A stretch of DNA of 45,606 nucleotides, from positions 1 to 45,606 of the forward strand of contig JBHLNT010000015.1 of assembly GCA_048941265.1 (NCBI GenBank). The letters run 5' to 3'. This document shows, in pieces, positions 4,534-40,861 of the stretch. Made by a program: the position numbers and the translations under genes. Every line of letters begins with the position of its first letter. Position 1 is the first letter of the stretch. Source of the stretch: Promethearchaeota archaeon. GTDB lineage: Archaea > Asgardarchaeota > Lokiarchaeia > Sigyniarchaeales > SOKP01. The notes under the pieces were generated by a model that did no database searches, was not told where the DNA came from, and saw nothing but the letters and a program-made list of their open reading frames with translations.

Positions 4534-5454
4534 ATGGTTGATTACAAAATTTCGGATTTTATGGATGACTACTTAATTGCGAAAGAAGTTGAAGAAGGAT
4601 GTGCATCTTCAACTGTAAAAGCATATAGATATGACCTTCAAAAATTTATTAATATTGTGGGAGACCAAGAGGTCAATTCGCCTTTAATGAGGCAAAAAGT
4701 TCGGTTATTCTTGAAGAAACTTAAAGATAAAAACTATACCAAAAAAGGTATAGCTCGAAAAATAGCCTCTTTACGTTCTTTTTTTAAGTTTTTAACTTTA
4801 AACGAATTTATTGATAAGAATCCATTGGATGTAATTCGAACTCCAAAGATTAAACTCGAAGAAAGTTTACCCAAATTTTTATCTCTTCAGGATATTGAGG
4901 TTATATTTGAAAAATTAAAAGATAGGACTTTGTTTAATTCGCGAAAGTGCGAGCGATATTATTTAATTATTCGTTTGTTTTATTCAACTATGGCAAGAGT
5001 GAGCGAACTATGTAATATTAAGATACGGGATGTTGATTTTGAAAAAGGATATATCCGATTACGGGGAAAGGGGAACAAAGAGCGGATTGTACCTGTAGAC
5101 CGAGGAACCATTAAAGCTCTTAAAGAATATTTAAGGAATAGGATTTACTACGAAACTGAAGATTATCTTTTGGTTAATACGAGAAATGAAAAACTTAATC
5201 CACGCGTAGTACAAAATGATATAAAAACAATAAAAGAAAAATGCGGATTTCAGGATTCTAAGATCATCACTCCACATGTTTTCAGACATACAGGAGCCAC
5301 ACATCTAAGACGTTCAGGTATGGACATTAGTGAATTACAGGATATTTTGGGACATAGTAGTCCAAACACCACAAGAATTTATGCGAAGAATGATATAACT
5401 AAATTAAAACAGTCTTATAGCCAAATGCATCCATTAAATAACAATAGTTTATAA
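4534..5454 (+). CDS. xerA: XerA-type tyrosine recombinase
   Basis: N-terminal core-binding domain (STVKAYRYDL, ARKIASLRSFFKFL) and intact catalytic residues R (ARVSE), K (GKGNKER), HxxR (HVFRH), H (LGH), Y (TRIY). Confidence 0.9.
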   Translation: MVDYKISDFMDDYLIAKEVEEGCASSTVKAYRYDLQKFINIVGDQEVNSPLMRQKVRLFLKKLKDKNYTKKGIARKIASLRSFFKFLTLNEFIDKNPLDVIRTPKIKLEESLPKFLSLQDIEVIFEKLKDRTLFNSRKCERYYLIIRLFYSTMARVSELCNIKIRDVDFEKGYIRLRGKGNKERIVPVDRGTIKALKEYLRNRIYYETEDYLLVNTRNEKLNPRVVQNDIKTIKEKCGFQDSKIITPHVFRHTGATHLRRSGMDISELQDILGHSSPNTTRIYAKNDITKLKQSYSQMHPLNNNSL

Positions 5455-7873: not shown

Positions 7874-7911
7874 CTTTCATTAGAATTAAAAATACGACAG
7901 CTATCAATAAA

Positions 7912-7958
7912 TTTCACTCTATTGGATTTTTCTGCTATTTTTACATACAATAATTTAA
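7912..7958. repeat. Direct repeat A, left copy (47 bp; 26-bp identical core TTTCACTCTATTGGATTTTTCTGCTA)
   Basis: Matches 12873-12919 at 43/47 positions. Confidence 0.9.
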
Positions 7959-7992
7959 CATTTAAATTGTCAAGTGTAATCTTTAATAATAC

Positions 7993-8019
7993 TCCAATTT
8001 TGTAAACAATAAAGGGGGG
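7993..8019 (+). promoter_or_regulatory. ORB-like element with G-string; possible replication origin downstream of cdc6
   Basis: TCCAATTTTGTAAACAATAAAGGGGGG resembles the archaeal ORB (TCCA...AAAC...GGGGG) but with non-canonical spacing; 120 bp from cdc6. Confidence 0.4.
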
Positions 8020-8279
8020 CCATTATAGCAAATAGATATGGATTTTTACGGGGCATAGCAATATTTATACTATTTTGGTTCTGTATTCCCTTTTTTTGGA
8101 TATCTGTAGTGAGGGATTGTGTTTCGGAAATAGAGGAAATTGAGAAAATTTTTTCAGAACGTATTAATAAATTTAAGAATAGAAATATGCAATTTAATAC
8201 CTAATTTAATAAATTGGAATTTTTATCGAAAATTAAAAAAAGGAATTAAAAATGAAAAAAATAAAAATTTTAATTATAT

Positions 8280-11200
8280 CTAATTTTTTAGTATTTCAAT
8301 ATTATCTAGGGCTTGGTTGATTTCGAAAAGTAATCTGTCGGCTAATTCTTGAGAAATTTTTCCCTTATCTAATAAATGATTTATAACGCACTTAGCTTTG
8401 TCTAGTTTAATAGAAGCGCTAGTTAAAAAATGTTTAATATCATGATCCAATGAAATTTTAAAAATTGATATTTCAAGCATCGTAACTGCCCCTCTAATAT
8501 AATTGCTAAGACACCAGCAATAGCACCAATTTAGTTCCTCTTCTATCATATCGTTAAGATTAAGTAAATCAACTTCAATTAATGCTATAGAATATCCTTG
8601 TTCTGTTCCAACTGAATTACCCATCAAAAGAATAATATTATTCCTAATAATGTGAATAAAATTAATCATATATTCTGCATTTTCGTCGTTTATAAAGTTT
8701 AATCTATTTATTAATTCGATTTTAAACTCTGTAATTTTTAAATAGATTTGTGCAATTACATCATAAAAAAGAGCACATTTACATTTTCCATTTTCAATGA
8801 AATAATAAGCTTCTTGTAATCGTTCTTGGGTTTTATCTAATATATGAATAAAAATTCGACTAATACAACTAGAAACATTCGCCTGAATATAATCTTTTAA
8901 TTCATCTATTTGACTATTAACAAAATCATATAAAAAGTCTAAGGTGAATTCAAGCATTGCTGATGCTTCGGAAGTTTCCTCATCTCCCGCCCAATCTTTA
9001 TCGTTATTAGTTGCAAACACGAATAAGGTGTAATTTCCAACCTTCAATGGGAGTATTAATTGATAAGTTATATTTTCCTCAAGTAGACCTGAAAAAATAA
9101 TATTGTCATTGTTATCTAAGATTATATATGTTCCTGTTGCTATACTATCGAGTATTCCATCATTATCTTCAATCTCTAACACCCATCCCAGTCCTTTTTC
9201 TGATATTAATATTTCTGGAGGAGTTATATCATCGTCTAAAATTGTTAATTCAATACTAGCTTCAGACCACATCAACTTTTTAGTAGTATTTTGATAAGCA
9301 ATTAATTGAAGTTTAATTTCTTTAGAAATCTCAGGAACACTATTCGATTTAAGTGCTATTTGCAATTTTAAACTTTTTACTTCATTTTTGCTTAATAAAA
9401 TATAATAGTTTCCTTCTTCATTTTTTTCTAATTCTGTATCATTGCTATAGAAAATGCTATAAGTGAGATAATCTGGTAAATTTGTTATTACAAGAGTGGA
9501 TACGATATAATCATAGTTATCTTCTAAGATTTGCCCTACTAAATTTTCAATATTGATTGAAAAATTAACATTTGTACCATCATATAAAACCTTCTTTTCC
9601 ACATCTACTAAAGTAAGCTGAATTTGATTTTTCTGTAATGCATATCGTTCAAAACTCTTCGCGTAATAATAAATCGATAAAAATTCGTCTCGATATGTGT
9701 TAAAAAATAAGTCTAGAGAAGAATCCTTTATTATATTAGCTAATAAACTTGCATTATAAAATTCTTCATTTAAAATTAGGTTTGTCAACGTATTTAGTTG
9801 GTCTAAAAGTGTATTGATTTCTAGTTCAATTTCTGGTCCTGATAAGGGAGATAATCCTAATTTACCTACTGAGATATATTGATTGGTCTTTATATTCTCT
9901 TCAAGTAAACTTAGGCATAATTCATCGATAGACTCAAAAATATGGGAACTTCTCATTGCCATTTCATTTAATAACTCCATGTCTTTATGTTCTATAGAAT
10001 TAATAGCGATTTCTTTATTCTGCATATCTTTTAAGACATTAGTCTCAATATTTCTAGTTATTTCAAATTCTGTAACAAAATCTTTATATTTAGGATCAAA
10101 TTCGAACTCAAATTCTGGAGATGTTAAAATATCCATATCAATATCAGAAAAATATAAGGGATTATTATTTGTCTCAGATTCAATAGAATTCATAAAAGAA
10201 ACGTAATAATATTCTAACTGTTTTGATGTCTCGATCATTTCATATGAAAATTCTTGAATGTTTTGAGTTTGAAAAGAGCATGCTGAAAAATTATTGCTAG
10301 CGAAGGCAGTGTTATATCTATTATTCGCAATTATAAGATTAGTAGTTAATCTTTCTAAATCTAATAATGAATCTATTATTGCCTTTCCTTGTATTGCAAT
10401 TGAATTATGAGCCTGAATTTCCTCATAAAGTTCTGGAAAACGTTCATATGGATAAGAAACCACATCAACATTAGGTTTTTCATAATAATTATTATCGGGA
10501 GGATCTTTTCCGTTCACAATGTCTAATATTGCGGTGTCCTTATATATATCAGTTGCTACGCCTATACCGGTAAGAAGACATAGTAGAAATGTCGGGCAAT
10601 AATCCATAGAAGAAACAGAAAACATTAAATCACTAAACATTTCATAACTGATAAAATTTCTTAGAGCATCTCTCTGAGAATCATCAGGTATTAATCCAAT
10701 TCCAGTATAATATATTAAATCCTCTGAATCAACTAATTCCCAATCTTCTGGATCCATTATTAACATTTGTCGTACATTAGTCCATTTATTATATGGATTG
10801 CCTCGAATATAATGATAATCATCCACATCCTCATTTAAATGCCACCACCATTTAGAAGGGTCATTCCAATATTTTTCTGCGCCATAAGCTTCTAAAATAC
10901 CGAAAAAAAGCCCCATAAATCCTCCTAAATTTGAAATTTTTGCCCCTAAAATATCTGCGCTATACACTAAAGAAAGCCAATCTTCAATATCTTTACTTTC
11001 ATTTTCCATTGTTTTGATAAAATCTAATGCTGTAGGAGGTAAGGGAATACCCAGAGCAGCAAACACATATTGCGCAAAAATTCTAGAATTCAAAAATTGT
11101 GCTTCCAATTCTGTAGCATCCTTAATTCCTTTTGTCCAATCATCCCAAATAACGCCAGAAGTATCCAAAATTTCTAAAGTTTTAATAGATATTTTACATA

Positions 11201-12749
11201 TTTCTATACTTTTAGTCTCGCCAGGATTTATCTCAACCCAAAAATGAAAGTCAAAGTCATCTTTTTTTAAATCTACTTTGGTATCATATGTGAATATTGC
11301 ATCCATGCTTTCTGCTAGATTCATGGGATCAATTAAATCACCATCATATATGTCTTTCTCTTCAGATTGGTTATATCTATAGATATTATCGAGATTTTGT
11401 AATAATGTAAAATCCAATCCCATCATTTTTGGGATTAATCCTCCAAATTTAACTCTTATAGGATATTCTTCCGTATTTTTAAATTCCATTGATATTGTGA
11501 TTTCGTTCTTTTGGTGATGCTCCTTAAAAGAATAAACATTGGTAGAATTATATTCATCACAATTTAGATATATACCTTTTTTTTTATCCAACCCCTCAAT
11601 TTTTACGGTTGCTAAATCCCCATAAAGAGGTAATGACCATGGAAGACGTCTATTTAATTTAAATTGAAAACAAACTTCACTACTATAATCATTGGGCCTA
11701 TCATGATCGTTATCCCTAAAACAAACACCGAATTCTAAAAGATAAAAATTTGGATATGTATCATAAACATCAGATAAATAAAATTCATAAGTACCAATTT
11801 TTCCTCCTTCGTGTTCATTAGTAGGTACAAATAAAAACCAATTGTTTTCTGAATACTTGCCCCTCCATTGTGCACCTGAAGGATCCTTTGCTTCAATAGC
11901 GATTTTCATATAGGTGCTATCACTATAACTAATATCGGATACATCATAGATCACATTATTTTCCAGTTCAGTTTTTTCGTTCCAGTGCCCAGAAGGGTAG
12001 ATCCAAGTTCTTATTTCTGGAGGTGTAACATCGTCATCCGTAATGTCATAGCAATTCCATATATAATCTTCTACAGGATATTCTACTCCAAATAAAGTAC
12101 ACCAATGAACTAATTCCGCATCAGCATTATACTCTATATAACCCGTATCTATATATATTGGATCAAGCTCAATAAATGTCCATTTATCATCGAAGACGTT
12201 CTTATCACATAGCCATGGAAAAAAAACTTCTTTCCAAACCCTGTCTTTGAAATTATCTTTACTTAAATAGAGCTCAGCGCAATAGATACATTCTAAACCC
12301 TTTATTCCAAATGAAATTTCAAATTTTATTTGCTCATCATTCGCATAAATTGGATCAATATAACCATCTGTAGTTGCTGTTAATTTCGTTCTAGCAATTT
12401 CATAACTTTCTTCTTTCGTTATTGTACCATTATATAAACCCCAATGTAGAATGGTAGCAATTTGAATTTTATTCTGAATTTGAGGATCATTAATTATTTC
12501 ATCGTTTAGTTGTCCATCTCTATAACCTAAATCAATAGTATATTGTTTCCATTCATTATACCCCCAATTTTCTTTTTCATCTTCTATAACTGAAAATTGA
12601 CTATTTTCAGATGAATCCACATCATCTGAGGAAATGGGACTCTCATTTTGTTTATTTGAATTATTTTTAATTGTCGTTGAATTTAGATATAAATTCGGGA
12701 GAAAAAGAATTAAAAGTATACCAAAAACTATTGTACTTTTACTTTTCAA
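8280..12749 (-). CDS. Large (1489 aa) secreted/surface hypothetical protein
   Basis: N-terminal signal-like helix, TTG start after AGGCGA SD-like site, twice-repeated DDD(V/I)TPPEI...(D/N)NDxDxxxD modules, central hydrophobic helices. Confidence 0.8.
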   Translation of the reverse strand: MKSKSTIVFGILLILFLPNLYLNSTTIKNNSNKQNESPISSDDVDSSENSQFSVIEDEKENWGYNEWKQYTIDLGYRDGQLNDEIINDPQIQNKIQIATILHWGLYNGTITKEESYEIARTKLTATTDGYIDPIYANDEQIKFEISFGIKGLECIYCAELYLSKDNFKDRVWKEVFFPWLCDKNVFDDKWTFIELDPIYIDTGYIEYNADAELVHWCTLFGVEYPVEDYIWNCYDITDDDVTPPEIRTWIYPSGHWNEKTELENNVIYDVSDISYSDSTYMKIAIEAKDPSGAQWRGKYSENNWFLFVPTNEHEGGKIGTYEFYLSDVYDTYPNFYLLEFGVCFRDNDHDRPNDYSSEVCFQFKLNRRLPWSLPLYGDLATVKIEGLDKKKGIYLNCDEYNSTNVYSFKEHHQKNEITISMEFKNTEEYPIRVKFGGLIPKMMGLDFTLLQNLDNIYRYNQSEEKDIYDGDLIDPMNLAESMDAIFTYDTKVDLKKDDFDFHFWVEINPGETKSIEICKISIKTLEILDTSGVIWDDWTKGIKDATELEAQFLNSRIFAQYVFAALGIPLPPTALDFIKTMENESKDIEDWLSLVYSADILGAKISNLGGFMGLFFGILEAYGAEKYWNDPSKWWWHLNEDVDDYHYIRGNPYNKWTNVRQMLIMDPEDWELVDSEDLIYYTGIGLIPDDSQRDALRNFISYEMFSDLMFSVSSMDYCPTFLLCLLTGIGVATDIYKDTAILDIVNGKDPPDNNYYEKPNVDVVSYPYERFPELYEEIQAHNSIAIQGKAIIDSLLDLERLTTNLIIANNRYNTAFASNNFSACSFQTQNIQEFSYEMIETSKQLEYYYVSFMNSIESETNNNPLYFSDIDMDILTSPEFEFEFDPKYKDFVTEFEITRNIETNVLKDMQNKEIAINSIEHKDMELLNEMAMRSSHIFESIDELCLSLLEENIKTNQYISVGKLGLSPLSGPEIELEINTLLDQLNTLTNLILNEEFYNASLLANIIKDSSLDLFFNTYRDEFLSIYYYAKSFERYALQKNQIQLTLVDVEKKVLYDGTNVNFSINIENLVGQILEDNYDYIVSTLVITNLPDYLTYSIFYSNDTELEKNEEGNYYILLSKNEVKSLKLQIALKSNSVPEISKEIKLQLIAYQNTTKKLMWSEASIELTILDDDITPPEILISEKGLGWVLEIEDNDGILDSIATGTYIILDNNDNIIFSGLLEENITYQLILPLKVGNYTLFVFATNNDKDWAGDEETSEASAMLEFTLDFLYDFVNSQIDELKDYIQANVSSCISRIFIHILDKTQERLQEAYYFIENGKCKCALFYDVIAQIYLKITEFKIELINRLNFINDENAEYMINFIHIIRNNIILLMGNSVGTEQGYSIALIEVDLLNLNDMIEEELNWCYCWCLSNYIRGAVTMLEISIFKISLDHDIKHFLTSASIKLDKAKCVINHLLDKGKISQELADRLLFEINQALDNIEILKN

Positions 12750-12872
12750 ATTAATTTCGCCTATTTTTTAAGAAATCATTTTTAATAAAATTGGATTAAT
12801 TAATATTTATTAAAATCGATTATTTAACGTTTGTGGTAAATAACCTTTACATCTTTTTGTTTTGCAGCATTC

Positions 12873-12919
12873 TTTCACTCTATTGGATTTTTCTGCTACT
12901 TTTTCATAAAATAATATAA
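12873..12919. repeat. Direct repeat A, right copy
   Basis: Matches 7912-7958 at 43/47 positions. Confidence 0.9.
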
Positions 12920-13169
12920 TTATTATTTTATTGAAATATCAAATTCTCTTTTTGGCAAAAGACTTTCTGATCCAATAAATGCGGTGATGACCATTTCAAA
13001 GGATCCAAATAAAAGTGAATTTGAAACAATTTGCTCAATTATAAAGGAATGGGCAAATAATAGTTATAACAAAAATCTCATTCCCGAGGAAATAGTGAGT
13101 TCCTTATTAAAAAAATTAATAGACGCGGGAGATCCAATCGCCAAACAAGCTTTTGAAGCCAAAAATTAA
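12915..13169 (+). pseudogene. Probable 5'-truncated remnant of a Lokiarchaeia-expanded domain (EFxxxCSxxxxW...LLKKLxxAGDPIAK)
   Basis: Motif recalled from Loki proteins; frame is open from 12915 with no good start; begins at the edge of repeat A. Confidence 0.5.
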
Positions 13170-13295
13170 ATTATTGTAATTATCGTTATGATATATTGAT
13201 TTTTAAATCTAAAGTTCTGAAAGATTATACAATGTCGCCGAAGAATACTAACTAACTTTAAGGAGAAAGTTCAGATATTAAAAATCGTGATTATA

Positions 13296-13526
13296 TTAAT
13301 ATTTCTCTTTCTCTGCTTTTGATTTCGAGTACCATTCAAGCCAATCCTTTCTACGCGCTTTTTTCTGGGAGTAATCATCGTCAGAATTAATGTTTTGTGT
13401 CCTTATCTTTTTCCAGTAATCATCTAATTCTGATCGCTTCAAAGACAATCCGCAAGAACTGCAAATCAGTGATTTAGTTGCTGATTCGAATTCCATCTTC
13501 CCTGCACATTCTGGACAGCGAGCCAT
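13296..13526 (-). CDS. Small zinc-ribbon protein
   Basis: CPEC...CSSC, ATG start, charged helical tail. Confidence 0.8.
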   Translation of the reverse strand: MARCPECAGKMEFESATKSLICSSCGLSLKRSELDDYWKKIRTQNINSDDDYSQKKARRKDWLEWYSKSKAEKEKY

Positions 13527-13585
13527 ACGTTTTCCTATTCAAACTTTTAATTTTTTTAAATTATATTATAGTATTTAGAATAAAT

Positions 13586-13607
13586 TAACGCTAAAATAAT
13601 TATTGAA
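13586..13607. repeat. Direct repeat B, left copy (TAACGCTAAAATAATTATTGAA)
   Basis: 22/22 identical to 13920-13941. Confidence 0.9.
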
Positions 13608-13710
13608 TTAATTGCATAATTGACATAAAATCCAAAATTCGGATTATTATTTTCCGAATCATTTAAGATTAATAGTTTTTGTTAAAAATATCAGAATCTT
13701 ATTTCCGATA

Positions 13711-13728
13711 AAAGAGAAATTATATATA
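13711..13728 (+). promoter_or_regulatory. BRE/TATA promoter of the candidate ncRNA
   Basis: Purine-rich AAAGAGAAA followed by TTATATATA, ending about 23 nt before the GC-rich block at 13751. Confidence 0.7.
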
Positions 13729-13750
13729 TTTGAATATCTATTATTTATAT

Positions 13751-13871
13751 GTAGTTCGCGACGACTGCGGTTGCTTGAGCATAAGAACCCCGGTCAAGGT
13801 TATTGCTAGGGCTCTCCTAGACGGACCTCCGCGATAACAGGTAATTCTGTTCTCAAGCCAGAATTACCACA
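13751..13871 (+). ncRNA. Unclassified ~120-nt structured RNA (three-way junction, 3' hairpin, loop-loop pairing)
   Basis: Sharp GC-rich island with no listed ORF; stems 13756-60/13830-34, 13763-72/13786-95, 13797-800/13825-28, 13806-10/13816-20, 13840-49/13859-68; upstream TATA and downstream T tracts. Confidence 0.7.
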
Positions 13872-13885
13872 AAAAAAGCTATATC

Positions 13886-13908
13886 TTTGTTTTGTCACTA
13901 ATTTTTTT
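13886..13908 (+). terminator. Possible oligo(T) terminator of the ncRNA
   Basis: TTTGTTTTG and TTTTTTT tracts just downstream of the structured block. Confidence 0.4.
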
Positions 13909-13919
13909 CGACAGTCTCA

Positions 13920-13941
13920 TAACGCTAAAATAATTATTGAA
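13920..13941. repeat. Direct repeat B, right copy
   Basis: 22/22 identical to 13586-13607. Confidence 0.9.
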
Positions 13942-14146
13942 AAAATAAATTTGCATTATTAATAATTTCAAGTAAACATTCTACTTATATATTTTAAAAT
14001 CGAAAAATTGTAAAGTGAGAACTATTGACATCTAAGGTATACTTTTTTACAGCTCGGGCTCACACCCGTCAAGAGAGTATGAGTAAAATCAAGGGACCAT
14101 TAGCCCTTAAGCATTTAGGTATTGAAGAAAAGATACCATAATACAT

Positions 14147-14386
14147 TTAATAGATGGTGAAGAATGTGGATCGATCTCAGTTCCATATGTATTACGTATG
14201 ATTTCGTCAACAGGATTAGATATCGGGAAAGATGGGCTCTCACCTGTAACTGATGATTACAAAGCACCATTCAAATTTCCCGGAACAATTAAAAGAGTCC
14301 ATGTAGATTTACCTCGGTACAGACCAGCTTCACAAGATCGTGAGGATGAGAAAGTCCGATTCCGCACTGAAATGTCCAAACAATAA
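14147..14386 (+). pseudogene. C-terminal remnant of an arylsulfatase
   Basis: LIDGEECG...GLDIGKDGLSPVTDDYKAPFKFPGTIKRVHVDL...RFRTEMSKQ resembles arylsulfatase C-termini; similarity extends upstream of the ATG at 14198; in-frame stop at 14123. Confidence 0.7.
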
Positions 14387-14503
14387 TGAAATCTTAAAAA
14401 AAAGATTGGGTTAGAAAAAGACAAGATAGGAGTATTAAACCTAAAGCCTATTTTAATAAAAAAAAAAAGAATTTGAAAGGTTAAAATTTTCCTTAAACTT
14501 ACT

Positions 14504-14818
14504 TTATTCTTTTAGTTTTTTAGCTAATTTCATAAGAGGGGGGATAACTTTAACTACTGGAGATGCAGGAGTCGTTTTAACAAACTTGAAAATACCTGGT
14601 TTAGTGAGTCTCCACATTGCAAATGCCTCTATAATTTGTTCCTCAGTATCTGCTTCTAATATTAATACACCCCAAAAATCTGAGTTACTCACATACCAAG
14701 CGATTTCTTTAGTGCCTTCTACTGGCCATAATTTCTTACTTACAATTTTTTGGGCAATTTCAGCTAATTCTGCTGGATCGAAATCAGGATTGAGTTCCCA
14801 ATATGTTATAAAAATCAT
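14504..14818 (-). CDS. Small hypothetical protein (DUF3303-like alpha/beta fold)
   Basis: ATG with AGGTGA SD; FITYWEL...W..S.FWGVLILEADTEE pattern. Confidence 0.7.
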   Translation of the reverse strand: MIFITYWELNPDFDPAELAEIAQKIVSKKLWPVEGTKEIAWYVSNSDFWGVLILEADTEEQIIEAFAMWRLTKPGIFKFVKTTPASPVVKVIPPLMKLAKKLKE

Positions 14819-31521: not shown

Positions 31522-33504
31522 TTGAGAAAAACAAATTTAAATAAAAAATTTTTACTCTTATTACTAATTTCTATACTACTGATGGCGATTAATAGAATTC
31601 CAAATGCAATTTACCATCCATCCATTCAGCCTCAGGATGATTTAATTACATTTAAAAGAAAGGAACCTCAAATATCTTATTCAACCAATTGGACTCCCAA
31701 TGGTACAGGAGTATGTACATATACCCTTGCTCAATGGTATCCTCAAATATGCAGCGATGATGCGGGTGGCGCGATTATAGCATGGAGAGATTTTAGAGAT
31801 TTAATATCTACTGGGACAGATATTTATGCTCAACGGGTTGATCCTATTGGATCTAGAAAATGGACGTGGAATGGTAAGCCTATATGCACGGCTGATGATC
31901 ACCAGACAAACCTTCAAATATGCAGTGATGGAGACGGGGGTGCGGTTATAGCATGGGAGGATTATAGAGGAAGTGATATAGATATTTACGCTCAGAAGGT
32001 CGATTCAGATGGCAACCCCCTGTGGATGTCTAATGGTAATGTCATTTGTAATGCAACTTCCGATCAAGAGAACCTCCAATTATGCAGTGATGGAGATGGG
32101 GGCGCGATTATAGCATGGGAGGATTATAGAGGAAGTGATATGGATATTTATGCTCAATGGATAAATTCAAGTGGGCATACAAAATGGGGAGGCAACGGCA
32201 CAATTATATGCAATTCGAACAATAACCAAAAAAACGCTCAAATATGCAGTGATGGAGAGTTTAGCGCGATTATAACATGGGAGGATTATAGAGGAAGTGA
32301 TATAGACATTTATGCACAAAGAATTAATAAAACTGGAGGTATGGAGTGGGCAACTAATGGTACTGCAGTATGCACATACACAAATAATCAAACAAATCCT
32401 CAATTATGTAGTGATGGGGCCAGTGGTGCGATCATTACCTGGAAAGATTTTCGAAGTCAACCTTATTATGACGTTTATGCTCAAAGGATTAATGCAACAG
32501 GAGGTAGAGAGTGGACCACTTCTGGTGAGATAATATGCAATGAAAATTGGAATCAAGAGAATATTCAAATATGTGGCGATGATGCGGGTGGTGCGATTAT
32601 AGTATGGGATGATATGAGAAATATATTTTCTACAGGTAAAGATATTTATGCCCTACGAATTAATTCGGAAGGGAGTACAGATTGGACTGAAAATGGTGAA
32701 GAAGTATGTGTGGCAGAAGGTACTCAAAGTATGCCTCAACTAACTAGTGATGAGGGAAGCGGTGCGATTATTACATGGTTAAACAGTAGTGGATCAGACT
32801 CTGATATTTATGCTCAGAGAATCAGCTCAACCGGAGTTACTAAATGGGCTTTTAATGGTGAGATAATTAGCAACGAATACAATAGCCAAGAAGAACCCCG
32901 AATATGTAAAGATGGATCTGGAGGTGCAATAATTACATGGCAAAATAACTCAGGGAGTACAACATTGATGGATATATTAGCTCAGCGAATGAAAAACGAT
33001 ATTCCTGTATCAATCAATCCAGCACCTGTAAATACGACCCTCAGTGGATCTCATAAAATTAACTGGAGATTATCTGATGACGGTGGTGGAGGCCAATATC
33101 GCGTTTGGGCGAACAATACCGCTGGGGATATTTATCTATGGATAGACTGGACATCATGGGTGGATAAAAATGATACTAATCTAGGTGTTCCAATTAACCG
33201 TATTGCGACAGGATCTTTCAACTATACGATTGAGTATTATGACGACCAGAATCAGTTTGGTATGAACGGCTCAGTAATCGTTACAATAACAAGGGACCCG
33301 ATAATTGTTGTTGGAGAGGGCGACAACGATGACGACGACGACAAATCTCAAGACACTTTTATAGACGACTTAATAAGGGAAGGACTTATTATTCCTATAG
33401 TTGGAGGTATCGTATCTGCGGTAATATCCGGCTTTATCGGAATTTTATTTTGGAAATATCAGAAAAAAAAAGAAAAAGAGGAAAAGCGAACCTCAGGAGT
33501 TTAA
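31522..33504 (+). CDS. Membrane-anchored surface protein with eight ~56-aa beta-propeller-like repeats
   Basis: Signal helix, 8 copies of (QICSDGxGGAIIxWxDxR...DIYAQR), C-terminal TM and basic tail. Confidence 0.85.
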   Translation: MRKTNLNKKFLLLLLISILLMAINRIPNAIYHPSIQPQDDLITFKRKEPQISYSTNWTPNGTGVCTYTLAQWYPQICSDDAGGAIIAWRDFRDLISTGTDIYAQRVDPIGSRKWTWNGKPICTADDHQTNLQICSDGDGGAVIAWEDYRGSDIDIYAQKVDSDGNPLWMSNGNVICNATSDQENLQLCSDGDGGAIIAWEDYRGSDMDIYAQWINSSGHTKWGGNGTIICNSNNNQKNAQICSDGEFSAIITWEDYRGSDIDIYAQRINKTGGMEWATNGTAVCTYTNNQTNPQLCSDGASGAIITWKDFRSQPYYDVYAQRINATGGREWTTSGEIICNENWNQENIQICGDDAGGAIIVWDDMRNIFSTGKDIYALRINSEGSTDWTENGEEVCVAEGTQSMPQLTSDEGSGAIITWLNSSGSDSDIYAQRISSTGVTKWAFNGEIISNEYNSQEEPRICKDGSGGAIITWQNNSGSTTLMDILAQRMKNDIPVSINPAPVNTTLSGSHKINWRLSDDGGGGQYRVWANNTAGDIYLWIDWTSWVDKNDTNLGVPINRIATGSFNYTIEYYDDQNQFGMNGSVIVTITRDPIIVVGEGDNDDDDDKSQDTFIDDLIREGLIIPIVGGIVSAVISGFIGILFWKYQKKKEKEEKRTSGV

Positions 33505-35954: not shown

Positions 35955-37397
35955 TTAGGTAATTTTTGCTCCGCAATTAGGACAAACAATTACATTTGAA
36001 ACAGTACAACCACAAATAACACACATTTTTATAGTAGTCCTTTTTTTCGGAGGTTTTAGTTCAGTAATTGATTTTTTTTCTGCTAAAATCCGGGATTCTG
36101 GTAGGTCTTTAATTATTTTTTTGCGACTTTTTAGATCCTCATTTACAGCAATTTCTTGTCCAAAATATCCTCCAACTCTTACTTTTTTCATAATTGGGGG
36201 ACTTGGAGGGGGTGGTTTGGTTATTAGTGATGGGGGACTTGGAGTTGATGGAGTAATCTCTATTTTTTCAAACTTTTCTTCAATTTCGTCCTCTTTTTCA
36301 TAGATTTCTTCAACCGGATATTCCTGAGGTATGGGTTCCTCAATATATTGTTCTTCTTTGATTTGATGTATATTATCTTCTCTCTCTTGAGGTATTAGCT
36401 CAAGTTCATTAACTGTTTTTCGAATTTCAAGAGGTGCTATCTCCGATATCTCTTGAACTTTAATTACTGGTGGTTCTCCAAATTCTTCCTCATAGACTAA
36501 GTTTACATACTCCTCATCGAGCTTTAAAAGTGTCTGACACTGTGGGCATCTAAATATGTGGTTATATCCAAAATTATTGGAAATTGCATATTTTGCAATT
36601 TCACATCCGTGAAACTTAGAACCGCAATTGAAACATTTTTTAATCTCATCAGAAAATGCTCCACATACAGGACAAACTTCTAACGAGCATATTGAGCAAA
36701 TTTCTTCATCATCTGGTGAAAGGCTTATTAAATCAACTGCTAACTTTTCGTAGAAAGACTTATCCTCTTTTAAATATTGTTGTTGTCTTGGGTCTGGGCG
36801 GATAATATTAAATTCTCTCTTACTTTTAATTAAGGAGCTAAGTACATCCTTAAATTGCAGAAAACTATTGCAAAGAAATGTCCCTCCCTGAGTTTCACTA
36901 GTAATTACTTTTAACTTAACTTCATCGAGATAATTAGTTCTTTCCCCTAAACGAATAACATCAATAATCGTTAAAAAATCTAAATTCTTTGATTTAATGA
37001 TTAAATCGTATAAAGCATTATGATATTCTTCAGATTTCTCGCTAGGGGTATCAGAGATAACGATTACTCGATAAACTTTCTTAATTTCGCGACTTTTTCT
37101 AAAAATATATGATAAAATCTCAAATAAAGCATTTTCAATGTAGCTTGAACTTTTTGGTCTAGTATCCCATTTCTCATCAATGATTTTTATAATTGAATTA
37201 GAATCCTTTTCATCATATAAAGATATTGGGTTATCATCTTCTTGAAAAATTACAATACCAAAACTGGAATCAACTAAATTGAGTTTCTCTTCTACAAATT
37301 TTTTTATTGTGTTAATTAATATCTCTTTTTCAATAAATTCAGTAGTTAAGTCTATACAAAAGATAACTTCTTCCGAAGTGATGGAATTTCCTGTCAT
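35955..37397 (-). CDS. vWA domain + RING/PHD-like Cys cluster + Pro-rich linker + zinc ribbon protein (paralog 1)
   Basis: VIFCIDLT / FGIVIF / RVIVISD / IDVIRLG / ETQGGTF vWA pattern; CxxC-CxxC-CxxC-FHxC-CPxC; terminal CxxC-CxxC. Confidence 0.8.
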   Translation of the reverse strand: MTGNSITSEEVIFCIDLTTEFIEKEILINTIKKFVEEKLNLVDSSFGIVIFQEDDNPISLYDEKDSNSIIKIIDEKWDTRPKSSSYIENALFEILSYIFRKSREIKKVYRVIVISDTPSEKSEEYHNALYDLIIKSKNLDFLTIIDVIRLGERTNYLDEVKLKVITSETQGGTFLCNSFLQFKDVLSSLIKSKREFNIIRPDPRQQQYLKEDKSFYEKLAVDLISLSPDDEEICSICSLEVCPVCGAFSDEIKKCFNCGSKFHGCEIAKYAISNNFGYNHIFRCPQCQTLLKLDEEYVNLVYEEEFGEPPVIKVQEISEIAPLEIRKTVNELELIPQEREDNIHQIKEEQYIEEPIPQEYPVEEIYEKEDEIEEKFEKIEITPSTPSPPSLITKPPPPSPPIMKKVRVGGYFGQEIAVNEDLKSRKKIIKDLPESRILAEKKSITELKPPKKRTTIKMCVICGCTVSNVIVCPNCGAKIT

Positions 37398-37450: not shown

Positions 37451-37470
37451 AATTTCTATATAAATTTTAA
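37451..37470. repeat. Direct repeat C, left copy (AATTTCTATATAAATTTTAA; TATA-like on the minus strand)
   Basis: 20/20 identical to 37546-37565. Confidence 0.8.
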
Positions 37471-37545: not shown

Positions 37546-37565
37546 AATTTCTATATAAATTTTAA
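37546..37565. repeat. Direct repeat C, right copy
   Basis: 20/20 identical to 37451-37470. Confidence 0.8.
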
Positions 37566-37630: not shown

Positions 37631-40600
37631 TTATATTTTAATCTCACTATCACACACCCAACACTTTTCTCCTTTTTTTTTCAAAGCTTTAGCACACCTA
37701 ACGCAATAAAATGCATTACATTTTGGGCATAAGTAATTTGCACCTTCAATTAAACCTTTATGGACGATACATAGAATTTTTCTATCCTCGATATCGACTT
37801 CTGATTCAGTCTTTTTCAATTCCTCTTTTTCTATTTCTGATGGTACTGCTGTAGTTGTTAATGTTGGGGTTGTTGTTGCTGATTTCTTCATTTTATGAAA
37901 TTCTTTTTCTTTTAGAACTTTTAGGGGTTTTATAAGGACCTTACTTTCTAAAGGTTTCAGTTTTGATTTTTTTCCTATTGAGCCACTCTGTATTTTTTTT
38001 TTCCTAATTTTTGCAGAATAAACCACTCCAGAAAGTATGACTACAGCGATGGTTATTAGGATAATAATCATTATTATAAAAATCTCGGTTTCGAACAATA
38101 TTTTATCTTTTCCATCATCTCCGCCATTAGAACTTCCATCCATTTCTTGTTTTGAACTTAACTCTTTTATTGGAATAAATTTACTTCTTAAATACATAAT
38201 TTCAGTATCAGTACCCCATACTCCATCAGTGTCATCTTGCCAGACTATATGAAGGTTATTAGAGCCATCCACAGCAATCTCAGGATAAAAGCTATCTTCT
38301 GTATTCCAGCCCCATGCATTATTATATCCATCAGAAATAACCGTAGCGTTTGACCATCCAACTCCTATAGTGTAATTCGCATACATAATCTCAATATCAA
38401 AACTCCATATACCATTTGAATTATCTTCCCAAACTACATGAAGATTATTAGAGCCATCCACAACGATCTTAGGGTTATAACTATCTTCTGTATTCCAGCC
38501 CCATGCATTATTATATCCATCAGAAATAACCGTAGCGTTTGACCATCCAACTCCTATGGTGTAATTCGCATACATAATCTCAACATCTGAAGCACTACCT
38601 CCCCATATCCCCTCCGTTTCGTCTTGCCAAACAATGTGAAGGTTGTTAGAGCCATCCACAGCAATGTCAGGACTCCCACTGCTACCGAAATTCCAGCCCC
38701 ATGCATTATTGTAACCATCAGAAATCACTGTAGCATTTGACCAACCTACTCCAGTAATATATTTAACATACATAATTTCAGTATCAGTACCCCATACTCC
38801 ATCAGTATAATCTTGCCAGACTACGTGAATGTGATTTAAACCATCTACAGCTATTTTGGGTTGCCAACTGTTCCTGTCATTCCAATATTTAGCATTATAT
38901 CCGTCAGAAATCACTGTAGCATTTGACCACTGACCTGTTGCTGCTGTGTATTTAACATACATAATTTCATCATCATTAACGCTATCAGACCATATCCCCT
39001 CAGTTTCATCTTGCCAAACTACGTGAAGATTATTAAAACCATCTATTGCAATATCAGGATTTTGACTTGATTCATTATTCCACCCCCAATCTCCACCATA
39101 TCCATCAGAAATTACAGTAGCATTTGACCATCCTACTCCTTCTGTGTATTTCGCATACATAATTTCGGTATCAGTACCCCATATACCATCGGTACCGTCT
39201 TGCCAGACAGCATGAAGAGTGTTAGAGCCATCTACAGCAATCTCAGGGCTACAGCTCTCATCATTATTCCAATCCCAAATATCTTGAAATCCATCAGAAA
39301 TTACAGATGCATTTTTAAATTCTTTAATAAACTGATCTAACAGTGTAACTTTACAGTACATGATTTCAGAATCTGAAAAGTCTTCCCTCCATATACCATC
39401 TGTTCTATCTTGCCAAACTATGTGAAGATTGTTAGCACCATTAATTGCTATATCAGGATACAAACTATTTCCTGAATTCCAATATTCACCTTCATGTCCA
39501 TCAGAAATCACAATTACGTTCGACCATCCTAATCCTTCAGTGTAGTTAGCGTACATTATTTCAGAATCTATACCCCATTTACCACTTGTATAATCATGCC
39601 ATACAACATGAAAGTCGTTCGAGCCATCAACAGCTATTTGAGGATTATCGCTGGAAGCAGTATTCCAGTATTCATCATTATATCCATCAGAAATAATGGT
39701 AGCGTTAGACCATTGATCTATTGCTGGTATGTAATAAGCATACATAATCTCACTATCTGAAGTACCTCCTCCCCATATACCCGGAGTGTCATCTTGCCAG
39801 ACTACATGAGGATTATTTAAGCCATCCAAGATAATATCAGGATTAAAACTTTTCCCTGTATTCCAAAATCCATTATCATATCCATCGGAAATAACAGTTG
39901 CATTGGACCATTGATTTGTAGCAACTGTAAAATTAGTATACATAATTTCAATATCAGTATTACCACCCCATATTCCTTCTGTATTATCTTCCCAAACTAT
40001 GTGAAGATTATTAGCACCATCTACAGCAACTACTGGATGTTCGCTATTTCCAGTATTCCAGTATTCACCCTTATATCCATCAGAAATCACTGTAGCGTTA
40101 GACCAACCTGCTCCATTAGTATAGTTTACATACATAATTTCTGTATCCGTACCCCATTTACCATTAGTATCATCTTGCCATACTACGTGAAGGTTATTAA
40201 CACCATCTACAGCAATTTGTGGATGTTTGCTATTTCCAGTATTCCAGTATTCTCCCTTATATCCATCAGAAATCACTGTAGCATTAGACCAACCTGCTCC
40301 ATTAGTATAGTTTACATACATAATCTCGAAATCTTGATCACCACCACCCCATATACCTTCTGTATTATCATACCATATGACATGAAGGTTATTAGCACCA
40401 TCTATTGCAATATTTGGAAATACACTAATTCCCGTATTCCAAAATTCGCCTTTGTAACCATCAGAAATTACAGTAGCATTTGACCATCCTACTCCTTCTG
40501 TGTAATTTGCATACATAATTTCGGGATCTGTAAGTCCTCCCTCACCCCATATACCAGGTGTTTGATCTTGCCAGACTGCATGGATAATATTAGACCCATC

Positions 40601-40861
40601 TATAGCAATCTCAGGATAAAAACTTTCTTTAGTATTCCAATATTCATTATTATATCCATCAGAAATCACAGAAACGTTAGAATAATTAATAATTGATGAG
40701 CGAATGCTTGGAAATTCTCTATCAGGAGTAATTGAAATAACTTGTTCAGATGATTCTATTTTAGGAACTGAATAATTAGATATTAAGAGAGCTGTTATAA
40801 GATTTCCTAAAATTAATAATATAAAAATTAATGAAATTTTTCTTATTAACATCTTTTTCAT
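37631..40861 (-). CDS. Receptor-like membrane protein: 13 beta-propeller-like repeats (7+6), TM helix, cytoplasmic RING-like zinc finger
   Basis: Signal helix; repeats SNATVISDGY...P.IAVDG.NNLH.VWQD.T.G.WG.D.EIMY; TM; CIVH...CPKC...CVRC...CWVC. Confidence 0.88.
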   Translation of the reverse strand: MKKMLIRKISLIFILLILGNLITALLISNYSVPKIESSEQVISITPDREFPSIRSSIINYSNVSVISDGYNNEYWNTKESFYPEIAIDGSNIIHAVWQDQTPGIWGEGGLTDPEIMYANYTEGVGWSNATVISDGYKGEFWNTGISVFPNIAIDGANNLHVIWYDNTEGIWGGGDQDFEIMYVNYTNGAGWSNATVISDGYKGEYWNTGNSKHPQIAVDGVNNLHVVWQDDTNGKWGTDTEIMYVNYTNGAGWSNATVISDGYKGEYWNTGNSEHPVVAVDGANNLHIVWEDNTEGIWGGNTDIEIMYTNFTVATNQWSNATVISDGYDNGFWNTGKSFNPDIILDGLNNPHVVWQDDTPGIWGGGTSDSEIMYAYYIPAIDQWSNATIISDGYNDEYWNTASSDNPQIAVDGSNDFHVVWHDYTSGKWGIDSEIMYANYTEGLGWSNVIVISDGHEGEYWNSGNSLYPDIAINGANNLHIVWQDRTDGIWREDFSDSEIMYCKVTLLDQFIKEFKNASVISDGFQDIWDWNNDESCSPEIAVDGSNTLHAVWQDGTDGIWGTDTEIMYAKYTEGVGWSNATVISDGYGGDWGWNNESSQNPDIAIDGFNNLHVVWQDETEGIWSDSVNDDEIMYVKYTAATGQWSNATVISDGYNAKYWNDRNSWQPKIAVDGLNHIHVVWQDYTDGVWGTDTEIMYVKYITGVGWSNATVISDGYNNAWGWNFGSSGSPDIAVDGSNNLHIVWQDETEGIWGGSASDVEIMYANYTIGVGWSNATVISDGYNNAWGWNTEDSYNPKIVVDGSNNLHVVWEDNSNGIWSFDIEIMYANYTIGVGWSNATVISDGYNNAWGWNTEDSFYPEIAVDGSNNLHIVWQDDTDGVWGTDTEIMYLRSKFIPIKELSSKQEMDGSSNGGDDGKDKILFETEIFIIMIIILITIAVVILSGVVYSAKIRKKKIQSGSIGKKSKLKPLESKVLIKPLKVLKEKEFHKMKKSATTTPTLTTTAVPSEIEKEELKKTESEVDIEDRKILCIVHKGLIEGANYLCPKCNAFYCVRCAKALKKKGEKCWVCDSEIKI

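Follow-up and report, generated by a model that had tools for sequence, protein, structure and literature searches.

A 312-base insert with a candidate small RNA between exact 22-base direct repeats at a promoter-proximal motif in an Asgard archaeal genome

Genes and repeats at the locus

The window, that is the whole 45.6-kb stretch of DNA that was analysed, comes from an Asgard (Promethearchaeota-type) genome, has a GC content of 30.3% and carries Cdc6/Orc1, an XerA-like tyrosine recombinase and other archaeal genes. The feature studied here has as its left neighbour a gene for a 76-amino-acid zinc-ribbon protein (13296..13526, minus strand), whose ATG lies 59 bases from the first of two direct repeat copies. 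The protein matched Pfam Zn_Ribbon_TF, under the curated cut-off. Fifty-one homologues were found, the named ones coming from Promethearchaeota, Lokiarchaeota, Hermodarchaeota or Hodarchaeota MAGs, and 26 zinc-ribbon sequences were taken into the alignment. For comparison of the surrounding DNA, the best 80 of 103 confirmed zinc-ribbon loci were used; the source genome was not among them. The zinc-ribbon gene was found in all 80 loci, with its starts located by tblastn, and the closest among these best 80 of 103 were L001 (91% protein identity) and L002 (88%).

On the right side lie the remains of two genes. A stub of a DUF362 (Fe-S) gene (14079..14141, plus strand) retains the first 20 codons, MSKIKGPLALKHLGIEEKIP, followed by a stop, and is cut at approximately 14135; the C-terminal stub of a sulfatase gene (14141..14389, plus strand) lies on the other side of the deletion. 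The segment 14135-14400 aligns to L001 6456-6191 and L002 6458-6193. Compared with these two loci, 3.27 kb are deleted at approximately 14135 and most of the DUF362 and sulfatase genes is gone; the intact genes of L002 encode 392 (DUF362) and 755 amino acids (Sulfatase) as assigned by Pfam. Many loci share a conserved DUF362 leader (14050-14090 in the window, approximately 9775-9815 in L001 and L002). The leader of L001 and L002 contains ACTCATAC ... GTATGAGT, with a predicted 8-bp stem enclosing the start codon, and two changes are present in the 5' arm of the window copy. Judged from its sequence, this stem could be a translational control hairpin.

Beyond the zinc-ribbon gene, the 5.4 kb from Cdc6 to the zinc-ribbon gene (7874-13296) are missing in L001, L002 and L003, where the gaps between the two genes amount to approximately 127-556 bases in alignment coordinates. 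The segment encodes a 1489-amino-acid ORF (8280-12749, minus strand) for which no relative was found in the 80 loci. This ORF is bracketed by a second exact direct repeat of the window, the 26-base TTTCACTCTATTGGATTTTTCTGCTA (7912-7937 and 12873-12898); the match extends in register over roughly 20 further bases, with 3 mismatches. In L002 a degenerate form of the 26-mer was found, at the Cdc6 side only, and no clean empty site for the 26-mer-flanked segment could be demonstrated in L001-L003. With the feature between the 22-mers, this makes two novelties bounded by repeats inside 6 kb, a hint that one process recurs in this genome. That these genomes commonly acquire repeat-flanked insertions was rejected, since only 3 isolated exact repeats of at least 20 bases within 8 kb were found in the 80 loci, using a filter that dropped pairs with flanks at least 50% identical, the 26-mer pair of the window included. 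An isolated exact 22-base direct repeat, TGTAGATATGTATAAAATTAAG, is present in L036 at 9696 and 14129 (4433 bases apart), and this pair could delimit a comparable repeat-bounded segment.

Several smaller features were seen in the same comparisons. Approximately 40-60 bases past the zinc-ribbon stop codon, GAAGAAT..T..ACTAA.. is shared between the window (13240-13258) and L001-L003 (approximately 10255-10290), the rest of that spacer being unconserved. The DUF3303-like gene of the window (14504-14818) is found elsewhere in L002, at 10442-10756 between Cdc6 and the zinc-ribbon gene (37% identity); at the DUF3303-like site L001 has no DNA similarity, and the alignment gap is 173 bases vs 653 in the window. 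This displacement is another sign of local gene shuffling. Far from the feature, an exact 20-base direct repeat, AATTTCTATATAAATTTTAA, occurs at 37451-37470 and 37546-37565 (95 bases apart); the pair is intergenic, flanked by an ORF that ends at 37397 and by the 3' end of a 1076-amino-acid repeat-rich ORF (37631-40861, minus strand).

The repeat that delimits the feature is the 22-mer TAACGCTAAAATAATTATTGAA, which occurs as exact copies at 13586-13607 and 13920-13941, both on the plus strand. The copies are 334 bases apart from start to start and enclose 312 bases of DNA (13608-13919). No further copy was detected in the 45.6-kb window on either strand with up to 3 mismatches. The chance expectation for a 22-mer was 0.01 matches, and two or more matches were obtained in 0 of 100 dinucleotide-preserving shuffles. 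Exact matching and shuffling thus confirmed the perfect 22-bp repeats around 312 bp that had been reported in the first-pass annotation. Its remark that TTGCAT follows shortly after each repeat was also borne out, the hexamer being found 4 bases after copy 1 (13612-13617) and 10 bases after copy 2 (13952-13957). Outside the 22-mer, the likeness of the flanks was at chance level, with the right-flank score matched by 755 of 2000 shuffles and the left-flank score by 512 of 2000. Since the flanks are no more alike than shuffled DNA, the repeat is sharply bounded, and a tandem duplication followed by divergence was ruled out.

The empty site and its motif in related loci

The left flank (13297-13607) aligns to 10230-9922 of L001 and 10230-9921 of L002, and the right flank (13920-14135) to 9943-9727 of L001 (85%) and 9942-9727 of L002 (82%). 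With both relatives the alignments end at 13607 and restart at 13920, and the homologies of the two flanks overlap by exactly the 22-mer (L001 9922-9943, L002 9921-9942). The 22-mer is therefore single in L001 and L002, with 1 mismatch (TAAAGC vs TAACGC in both window copies). L003 and L055 likewise have one 22-mer between the same two genes, without the RNA. On the opposite side of the spacer, the relatives carry a divergently oriented DUF362 Fe-S gene (Pfam). In the window the start codons of the two genes are separated by 552 bases, and subtraction of 334 leaves 218 bases; the corresponding spacer has 217 bases in L001 as well as in L002.

In 63 of the 80 loci a divergent DUF362 match was found whose N-terminus lay no more than 5 kb away, and the spacer was 180-321 bases long in 57 of these and 763-2378 bases in 6. 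The other 17 loci comprise one with the gene 6278 bases off, one with a match lacking the N-terminus and 15 without DUF362, three of which have less than 510 bases of upstream DNA. Because the spacer is this short (180-321 bases) in 57 of the 63 loci that have the gene pair, the short state is ancestral. In the six loci with an enlarged spacer (L036, L037, L059, L054, L042 and L077), the growth to 763-2378 bases came from protein-coding genes; by reading alone, the inserts of L037, L059 and L077 carry a small-GTPase-like gene. No long flanking repeats were found at these six enlarged spacers, the longest being 14 bases, which by a rough estimate is within chance for AT-rich DNA. Insertions have thus recurred in the spacer that separates the zinc-ribbon gene from the DUF362 gene.

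The 22-base overlap in the relatives and the agreement of 218 with 217 bases indicate a precise, lineage-specific insertion accompanied by target duplication, and an insertion with a 22-base target duplication is well supported at this site. The exact ends of the insert (13608..13919 as written, plus strand) may be shifted by up to 22 bases owing to the repeat. The first-pass annotation had proposed a target-site duplication or an attL/attR pair and had suggested a search for a site with a single repeat. Such an empty site was found in four relatives, the RNA was syntenic in none of the 80 loci and the 22-mer was uncommon, all of which fits that proposal. The two junctions share an identical core, of which the empty site has one copy (1 mismatch in L001 and L002), as is expected of att sites.

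The repeat is related to the promoter of the zinc-ribbon gene. Copy 1 (13586..13607, plus strand) contains a 16-base core, TAAAATAATTATTGAA, which in 28 of 80 loci was found, with up to 2 mismatches, no more than 120 bases upstream of the zinc-ribbon ATG, compared with 7 of 1600 shuffles. When up to 3 mismatches were allowed in the same upstream region, 47 of 80 loci were positive vs 78 of 1600 shuffled regions. In 1.22 Mb of DNA from the loci, the core with at most 1 mismatch had 12 occurrences, 10 of them at the zinc-ribbon promoter and 1 at -127. Within the window, the two repeat copies were the only occurrences at up to 2 mismatches. The motif is partly palindromic (direct reading located the palindrome AATAATTATT inside the 22-mer), and in the relatives it lies at the same distance from the zinc-ribbon ATG as copy 1. 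On these sequence comparisons, the duplicated target is a promoter-proximal motif of the zinc-ribbon gene, conserved and, in the DNA searched, specific to this locus; it may be the TATA/BRE of this gene or a factor-binding site. That the 22-mer might be a common genome-wide motif, a concern raised earlier, was not borne out in the window and the 80 loci. After the insertion, copy 1 is as far from the zinc-ribbon ATG as the native motif is, and copy 2 (13920..13941, plus strand), also an exact match, is followed by the native DUF362 upstream region.

The two repeat copies differ at 0 of 22 bases, whereas the flanks diverge by approximately 15-19% from L001 and L002, which argues for an event after the split from these two species. 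Six bases outside the conserved core, variable among species, are also the same in both copies. The insertion is probably much younger than the split from the L001 and L002 species, as far as these sequences can date it; the timing is coarse because the nearest genomes are from different species (approximately 84% DNA identity).

The insert and its candidate small RNA

The left part of the insert is AT-rich and contains a hairpin with the 7-bp stem ATTCGGA / TCCGAAT (13637..13659, plus strand). As DNA, 13608-13700 did not fold significantly better than shuffles (z -1.28, 21 of 200 shuffles as good). An A-rich stretch with TTATATATAT follows (13710..13729, plus strand) and was read directly as a putative archaeal BRE/TATA-like promoter, approximately 22-30 bases upstream of the structured stretch. 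The latter is a candidate small RNA (13750..13872, plus strand) with a predicted three-way junction, closed by the stem 13756-13760 / 13830-13834, and a perfect 10-bp hairpin predicted at 13840-13849 / 13859-13868 with a 9-base loop. The plus strand of 13750-13872 folded at -43 kcal/mol with z -3.17, and 0 of 200 shuffles were as good; the minus strand was marginal (z -1.85, 10 of 200 shuffles as good). Seven bases of the hairpin loop are complementary to 13773-13779, a match reached by 55 of 5000 shuffles.

The composition of this stretch also stands out. Among windows of 100 bases, 13750-13849 ties for the highest GC content (0.53, compared with a mean of 0.30 and a standard deviation of 0.07). 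Two other windows with at least 0.51 GC (38601-38700 and 31861-31960) lie inside listed ORFs, and the stretch is the most GC-rich intergenic one in the 45.6 kb. Downstream are T tracts (13871..13908, plus strand), consisting of A7 at 13871-13877 (T7 on the minus strand), TTTT at 13890-13893 and T7 at 13902-13908. Archaeal RNA polymerase terminates at T tracts, and those found here are likely to act as termination signals for both directions. No ORF longer than 36 amino acids was found in the insert.

Relatives of the RNA were sought in several ways. Rfam 15 gave 0 matches at the gathering score in the whole window; at E<=10, the region 13000-14600 gave 3 weak matches (E 2.5-8.4), none of them on 13750-13872. 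There were 0 tRNA or tmRNA genes in the window. When the RNA and the cassette were searched by blastn and short-word blastn against the window and the 80 loci, only the repeat and chance words of up to 16 bases were recovered. A single-sequence covariance model run over 1,264,739 bases (window and 80 loci) detected only the RNA itself and its own hairpin on the other strand. A phage collection returned four hits attributed to chance, which lie in the AT-rich part and span 11% of the query, and a plasmid collection returned no match to the insert. The insert is thus present once in the 45.6-kb window and in none of the 80 related loci. A derivation of the RNA from the deleted DUF362 and sulfatase genes was ruled out, as it showed no blastn similarity to L001 and L002, which carry both.

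The RNA being without relatives, its structure is likewise without covariation support, and its status as a gene rests on composition, fold and signals instead of conservation. The first-pass annotation had described an RNA gene with its promoter. The fold, the promoter-like stretch and the T tracts agree with that description, an Rfam family was not found for it, and the gene is a plausible reading from which transcription of the candidate RNA is presumed. We consider it somewhat unlikely that the GC-rich stretch is foreign or decayed DNA that merely folds, such as the end of a larger integrated plasmid or virus. The lack of an Rfam match and of a homologue in the 80 loci, and with it of conservation or covariation, would suit such an origin, and passages of PMC11529989 describe Asgard integrated elements that decay, some of which hold sub-elements. 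However, decayed DNA would not account well for a plus strand that folds better than 200 of 200 shuffles next to a marginal minus strand, for a BRE/TATA-like stretch at the right distance with T tracts downstream, for the lack of any reading frame above 36 codons, or for the 7-base complementarity of loop to stem that few of the 5000 shuffles attained.

Origin of the insert and comparison with known systems

A history can be proposed from these observations. In the ancestor, the zinc-ribbon and DUF362 genes would have been divergent across a spacer of approximately 217 bases containing one 22-mer. Foreign DNA of 312 bases would then have entered at the motif, and because the motif was duplicated on insertion, both flanking genes would have kept their own upstream sequence. 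The cargo would be a self-contained unit consisting of the BRE/TATA stretch, a structured RNA of approximately 120-155 nt and T tracts acting both ways. The most likely route would be integration by an enzyme supplied in trans. In one version, recombination would take place between identical AT-rich, partly palindromic 22-base att cores, with either a 334-base circle or a larger integrated element, later reduced by deletion, as the intermediate. In the other version, cuts staggered by up to 22 bases would be followed by fill-in. The stagger could also have been shorter than 22 bases, because the 22-base repeat apparent in silico at the Nitrosopumilus koreensis casposon is a 13-base duplication plus chance identity, as stated in passages of PMC8464041.

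We therefore favour one precise, fairly recent insertion of a promoter-RNA-terminator unit, most likely by a trans-acting enzyme, and assign this reading a probability of roughly 0.6. The acting enzyme and any ability of the insert to move again are inferences, and a mobile element is a plausible reading. The earlier designation as a mobile unit went further than the data: it needs more than one insertion event, and the searches gave a single copy in the 45.6 kb and no copy in the 80 loci. What the locus offers is a well-documented single event.

The insert itself and the window were searched for features of known elements. Terminal inverted repeats were absent in all 23 possible registers (best, 14 of 30 positions), and the longest terminal run was 5, which comes from the palindrome inside the repeat. 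Neither the insert nor the 39 scanned ORFs of the window yielded a transposase or a reverse transcriptase, and the only recombinase in either was the XerA-like gene (4534-5454), the single Phage_integrase-family gene among the 39; a Cas1-like domain was not found in these ORFs. The first-pass statement that the window has no transposase or reverse transcriptase, with XerA as its only recombinase, thus holds for the 39 ORFs scanned. The XerA block aligns at 83-84% with L001 and L002, which argues for an ordinary, housekeeping-like resident gene and lends it no special link to the cassette.

Other assignments were tried and rejected. Integrons are reportedly present in Archaea; an integron cassette was rejected as the core sites RYYYAAC / GTTRRRY are absent from 13500-14050, the plus strand being searched. 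The DNA of the junctions and of the left part of the insert folds no better than shuffles, so a hairpin-ended element is unsupported. A guide or bridge RNA was rejected, complementarity between RNA and target being at most 6 bases, a value reached by 488-490 of 500 shuffles. An element derived from IS200/IS605 or a TnpB guide RNA was rejected on account of the 22-base duplication, the left hairpin that is not significant and the absence of an Rfam match. Very long target duplications may occur in IS1634; the literature consulted showed a 6-base case only and gave no support for them. In one study target duplications of IS elements were 4-9 bases (passages of PMC8024623) and those of casposons are approximately 13-14 bases (passages of PMC8464041), and by this comparison 22 bases are long for a transposase duplication.

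The main rival to enzymatic insertion holds that a stray fragment was taken up when a chromosome break with ends staggered by 22 bases was repaired, the duplication arising by fill-in; this would have been a one-off event leaving immobile DNA. The area is prone to rearrangement, with the 3.27-kb deletion 215 bases away and the 5.4-kb insertion beyond the zinc-ribbon gene, and genes were inserted in the same spacer in six other lineages; an insert that is single-copy in all DNA searched, without inverted repeats and without an enzyme, would also be expected of a captured fragment. The junctions, however, are clean and the restored spacer is at most 1 base off L001 and L002, whereas bases are usually lost or gained in end joining. 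A captured fragment would moreover have had to contain promoter, RNA and terminator together and to exceed every other intergenic stretch of the window in GC content, and no source for it was found in the collections searched. On balance we regard such a capture as unlikely.

An assembly artefact, in which the contig was misjoined through a short shared word, is very improbable: the source is probably a metagenome assembly and the repeat length is near common small k-mer sizes, but the 312 bases would need the same 22-mer on both sides elsewhere, both flanks match the single locus of the relatives to the base, and no second copy of the insert is present in the window. It is even harder to believe that the cassette and both repeats are ancestral and that recombination between the repeats removed the cassette from the relatives; such recombination would leave one copy, as in L001 and L002, but many independent precise losses would be needed to leave short spacers in the great majority of gene-pair loci, which span many species down to 27% DUF362 identity, and the RNA in 0 of 80 loci, and the repeats are identical even at the positions variable among species. 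Just as little credence is given to the 22-mer being a regulatory site (a transcription-factor box or TATA region) at two promoters without any insertion; the core is indeed a conserved, partly palindromic promoter-proximal motif with AATAATTATT, but the relatives have one copy and no intervening DNA, the copies also agree at the six bases that lie outside the conserved core, the motif is nearly confined to this promoter in 1.2 Mb of related DNA, and it has no other occurrence in the window at up to 2 mismatches.

A bolder form of the favoured insertion reading would place the insert, as a still active element, in a class of miniature integrative elements of archaea that has yet to be described. 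Such an element would be approximately 334 bases long, with a structured RNA as its only cargo and with neither inverted repeats nor an enzyme of its own; it would target a conserved promoter motif and duplicate 22 bases, leaving the genes on both sides with their promoters. We regard this as distinctly doubtful; if it were true, the RNA could take part in maintenance or mobilisation of the element. To our knowledge, little is known about the gain of small genes and about non-coding RNAs in Asgard archaea. The locus provides a base-pair-resolved case in which a promoter-RNA-terminator unit lies at a conserved bidirectional promoter, with both neighbours undisturbed and the empty site kept in relatives. 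If more copies exist, it would represent a very small, enzyme-less type of element with an unusually long target duplication and offer a way to the recombinase responsible for such insertions. Should it prove single-copy, the locus would still be a clean example of the birth of an orphan RNA gene in a genome.

Among known systems, several resemble the enzymatically inserted cassette in part. IMEX-type elements exploit the host Xer recombinase and have no recombinase of their own. The cassette is similar to them in lacking a recombinase and in having flanking copies of a site and an Xer gene elsewhere on the chromosome; it differs in that its 22-mer is a promoter motif at one gene in many species, with no evidence of dif. 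By direct reading the 22-mer is also without the usual dif form, two arms around a 6-8-base spacer. SINE-like elements are retroposed small structured RNA genes with a target duplication of approximately 15-20 bases. In contrast, the insert holds approximately 140 bases of upstream promoter DNA, its A tract (13871-13877) sits 42 bases from the repeat instead of abutting it, and no reverse transcriptase was found among the 39 window ORFs scanned.

The cassette is like a MITE in being small (312 bases), non-coding (no ORF above 36 amino acids) and intergenic, in its exact duplication of the target with an empty site in relatives, and in its presumed dependence on an enzyme in trans. It differs from MITEs in having no terminal inverted repeats, a far longer duplication of atypical length and no further copies in the window and the 80 loci. 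With casposons, as described in passages of PMC8464041, it shares an archaeal host and integration at a specific sequence, with duplication of an AT-rich target longer than 10 bases, and the same passages report that the casposase takes substrates from 7 nt to approximately 4 kb in vitro. Casposons have terminal inverted repeats, a Cas1-like gene and a 13-base duplication (approximately 14 in family 2) according to that text, whereas the cassette and the scanned ORFs have neither of the first two features. A MITE or a casposon-like element was ruled out by the lack of terminal inverted repeats in the 23 registers. Aloposons, which integrate at tRNA genes according to passages of PMC8813620, are not a match because of that target.

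Integrated elements of Asgard archaea are a further comparison. In passages of PMC11529989, Yucahu-i and mini-Yucahu of Atabeyarchaeia are bounded by an 11-base AT-rich att motif, and one such sub-element of 2.6 kb excises. The cassette resembles them, as there described, in its identical AT-rich direct repeats and the empty site in relatives, and a small sub-element of theirs can likewise lack its own integrase. Elements of the Yucahu type are larger (2.6-11 kb) and carry protein genes, their parent has a tyrosine integrase and their circles were seen in reads, according to the same passages; the cassette, in contrast, has 312 bases, no protein gene and a 22-base repeat, and is known from assembled sequence alone.
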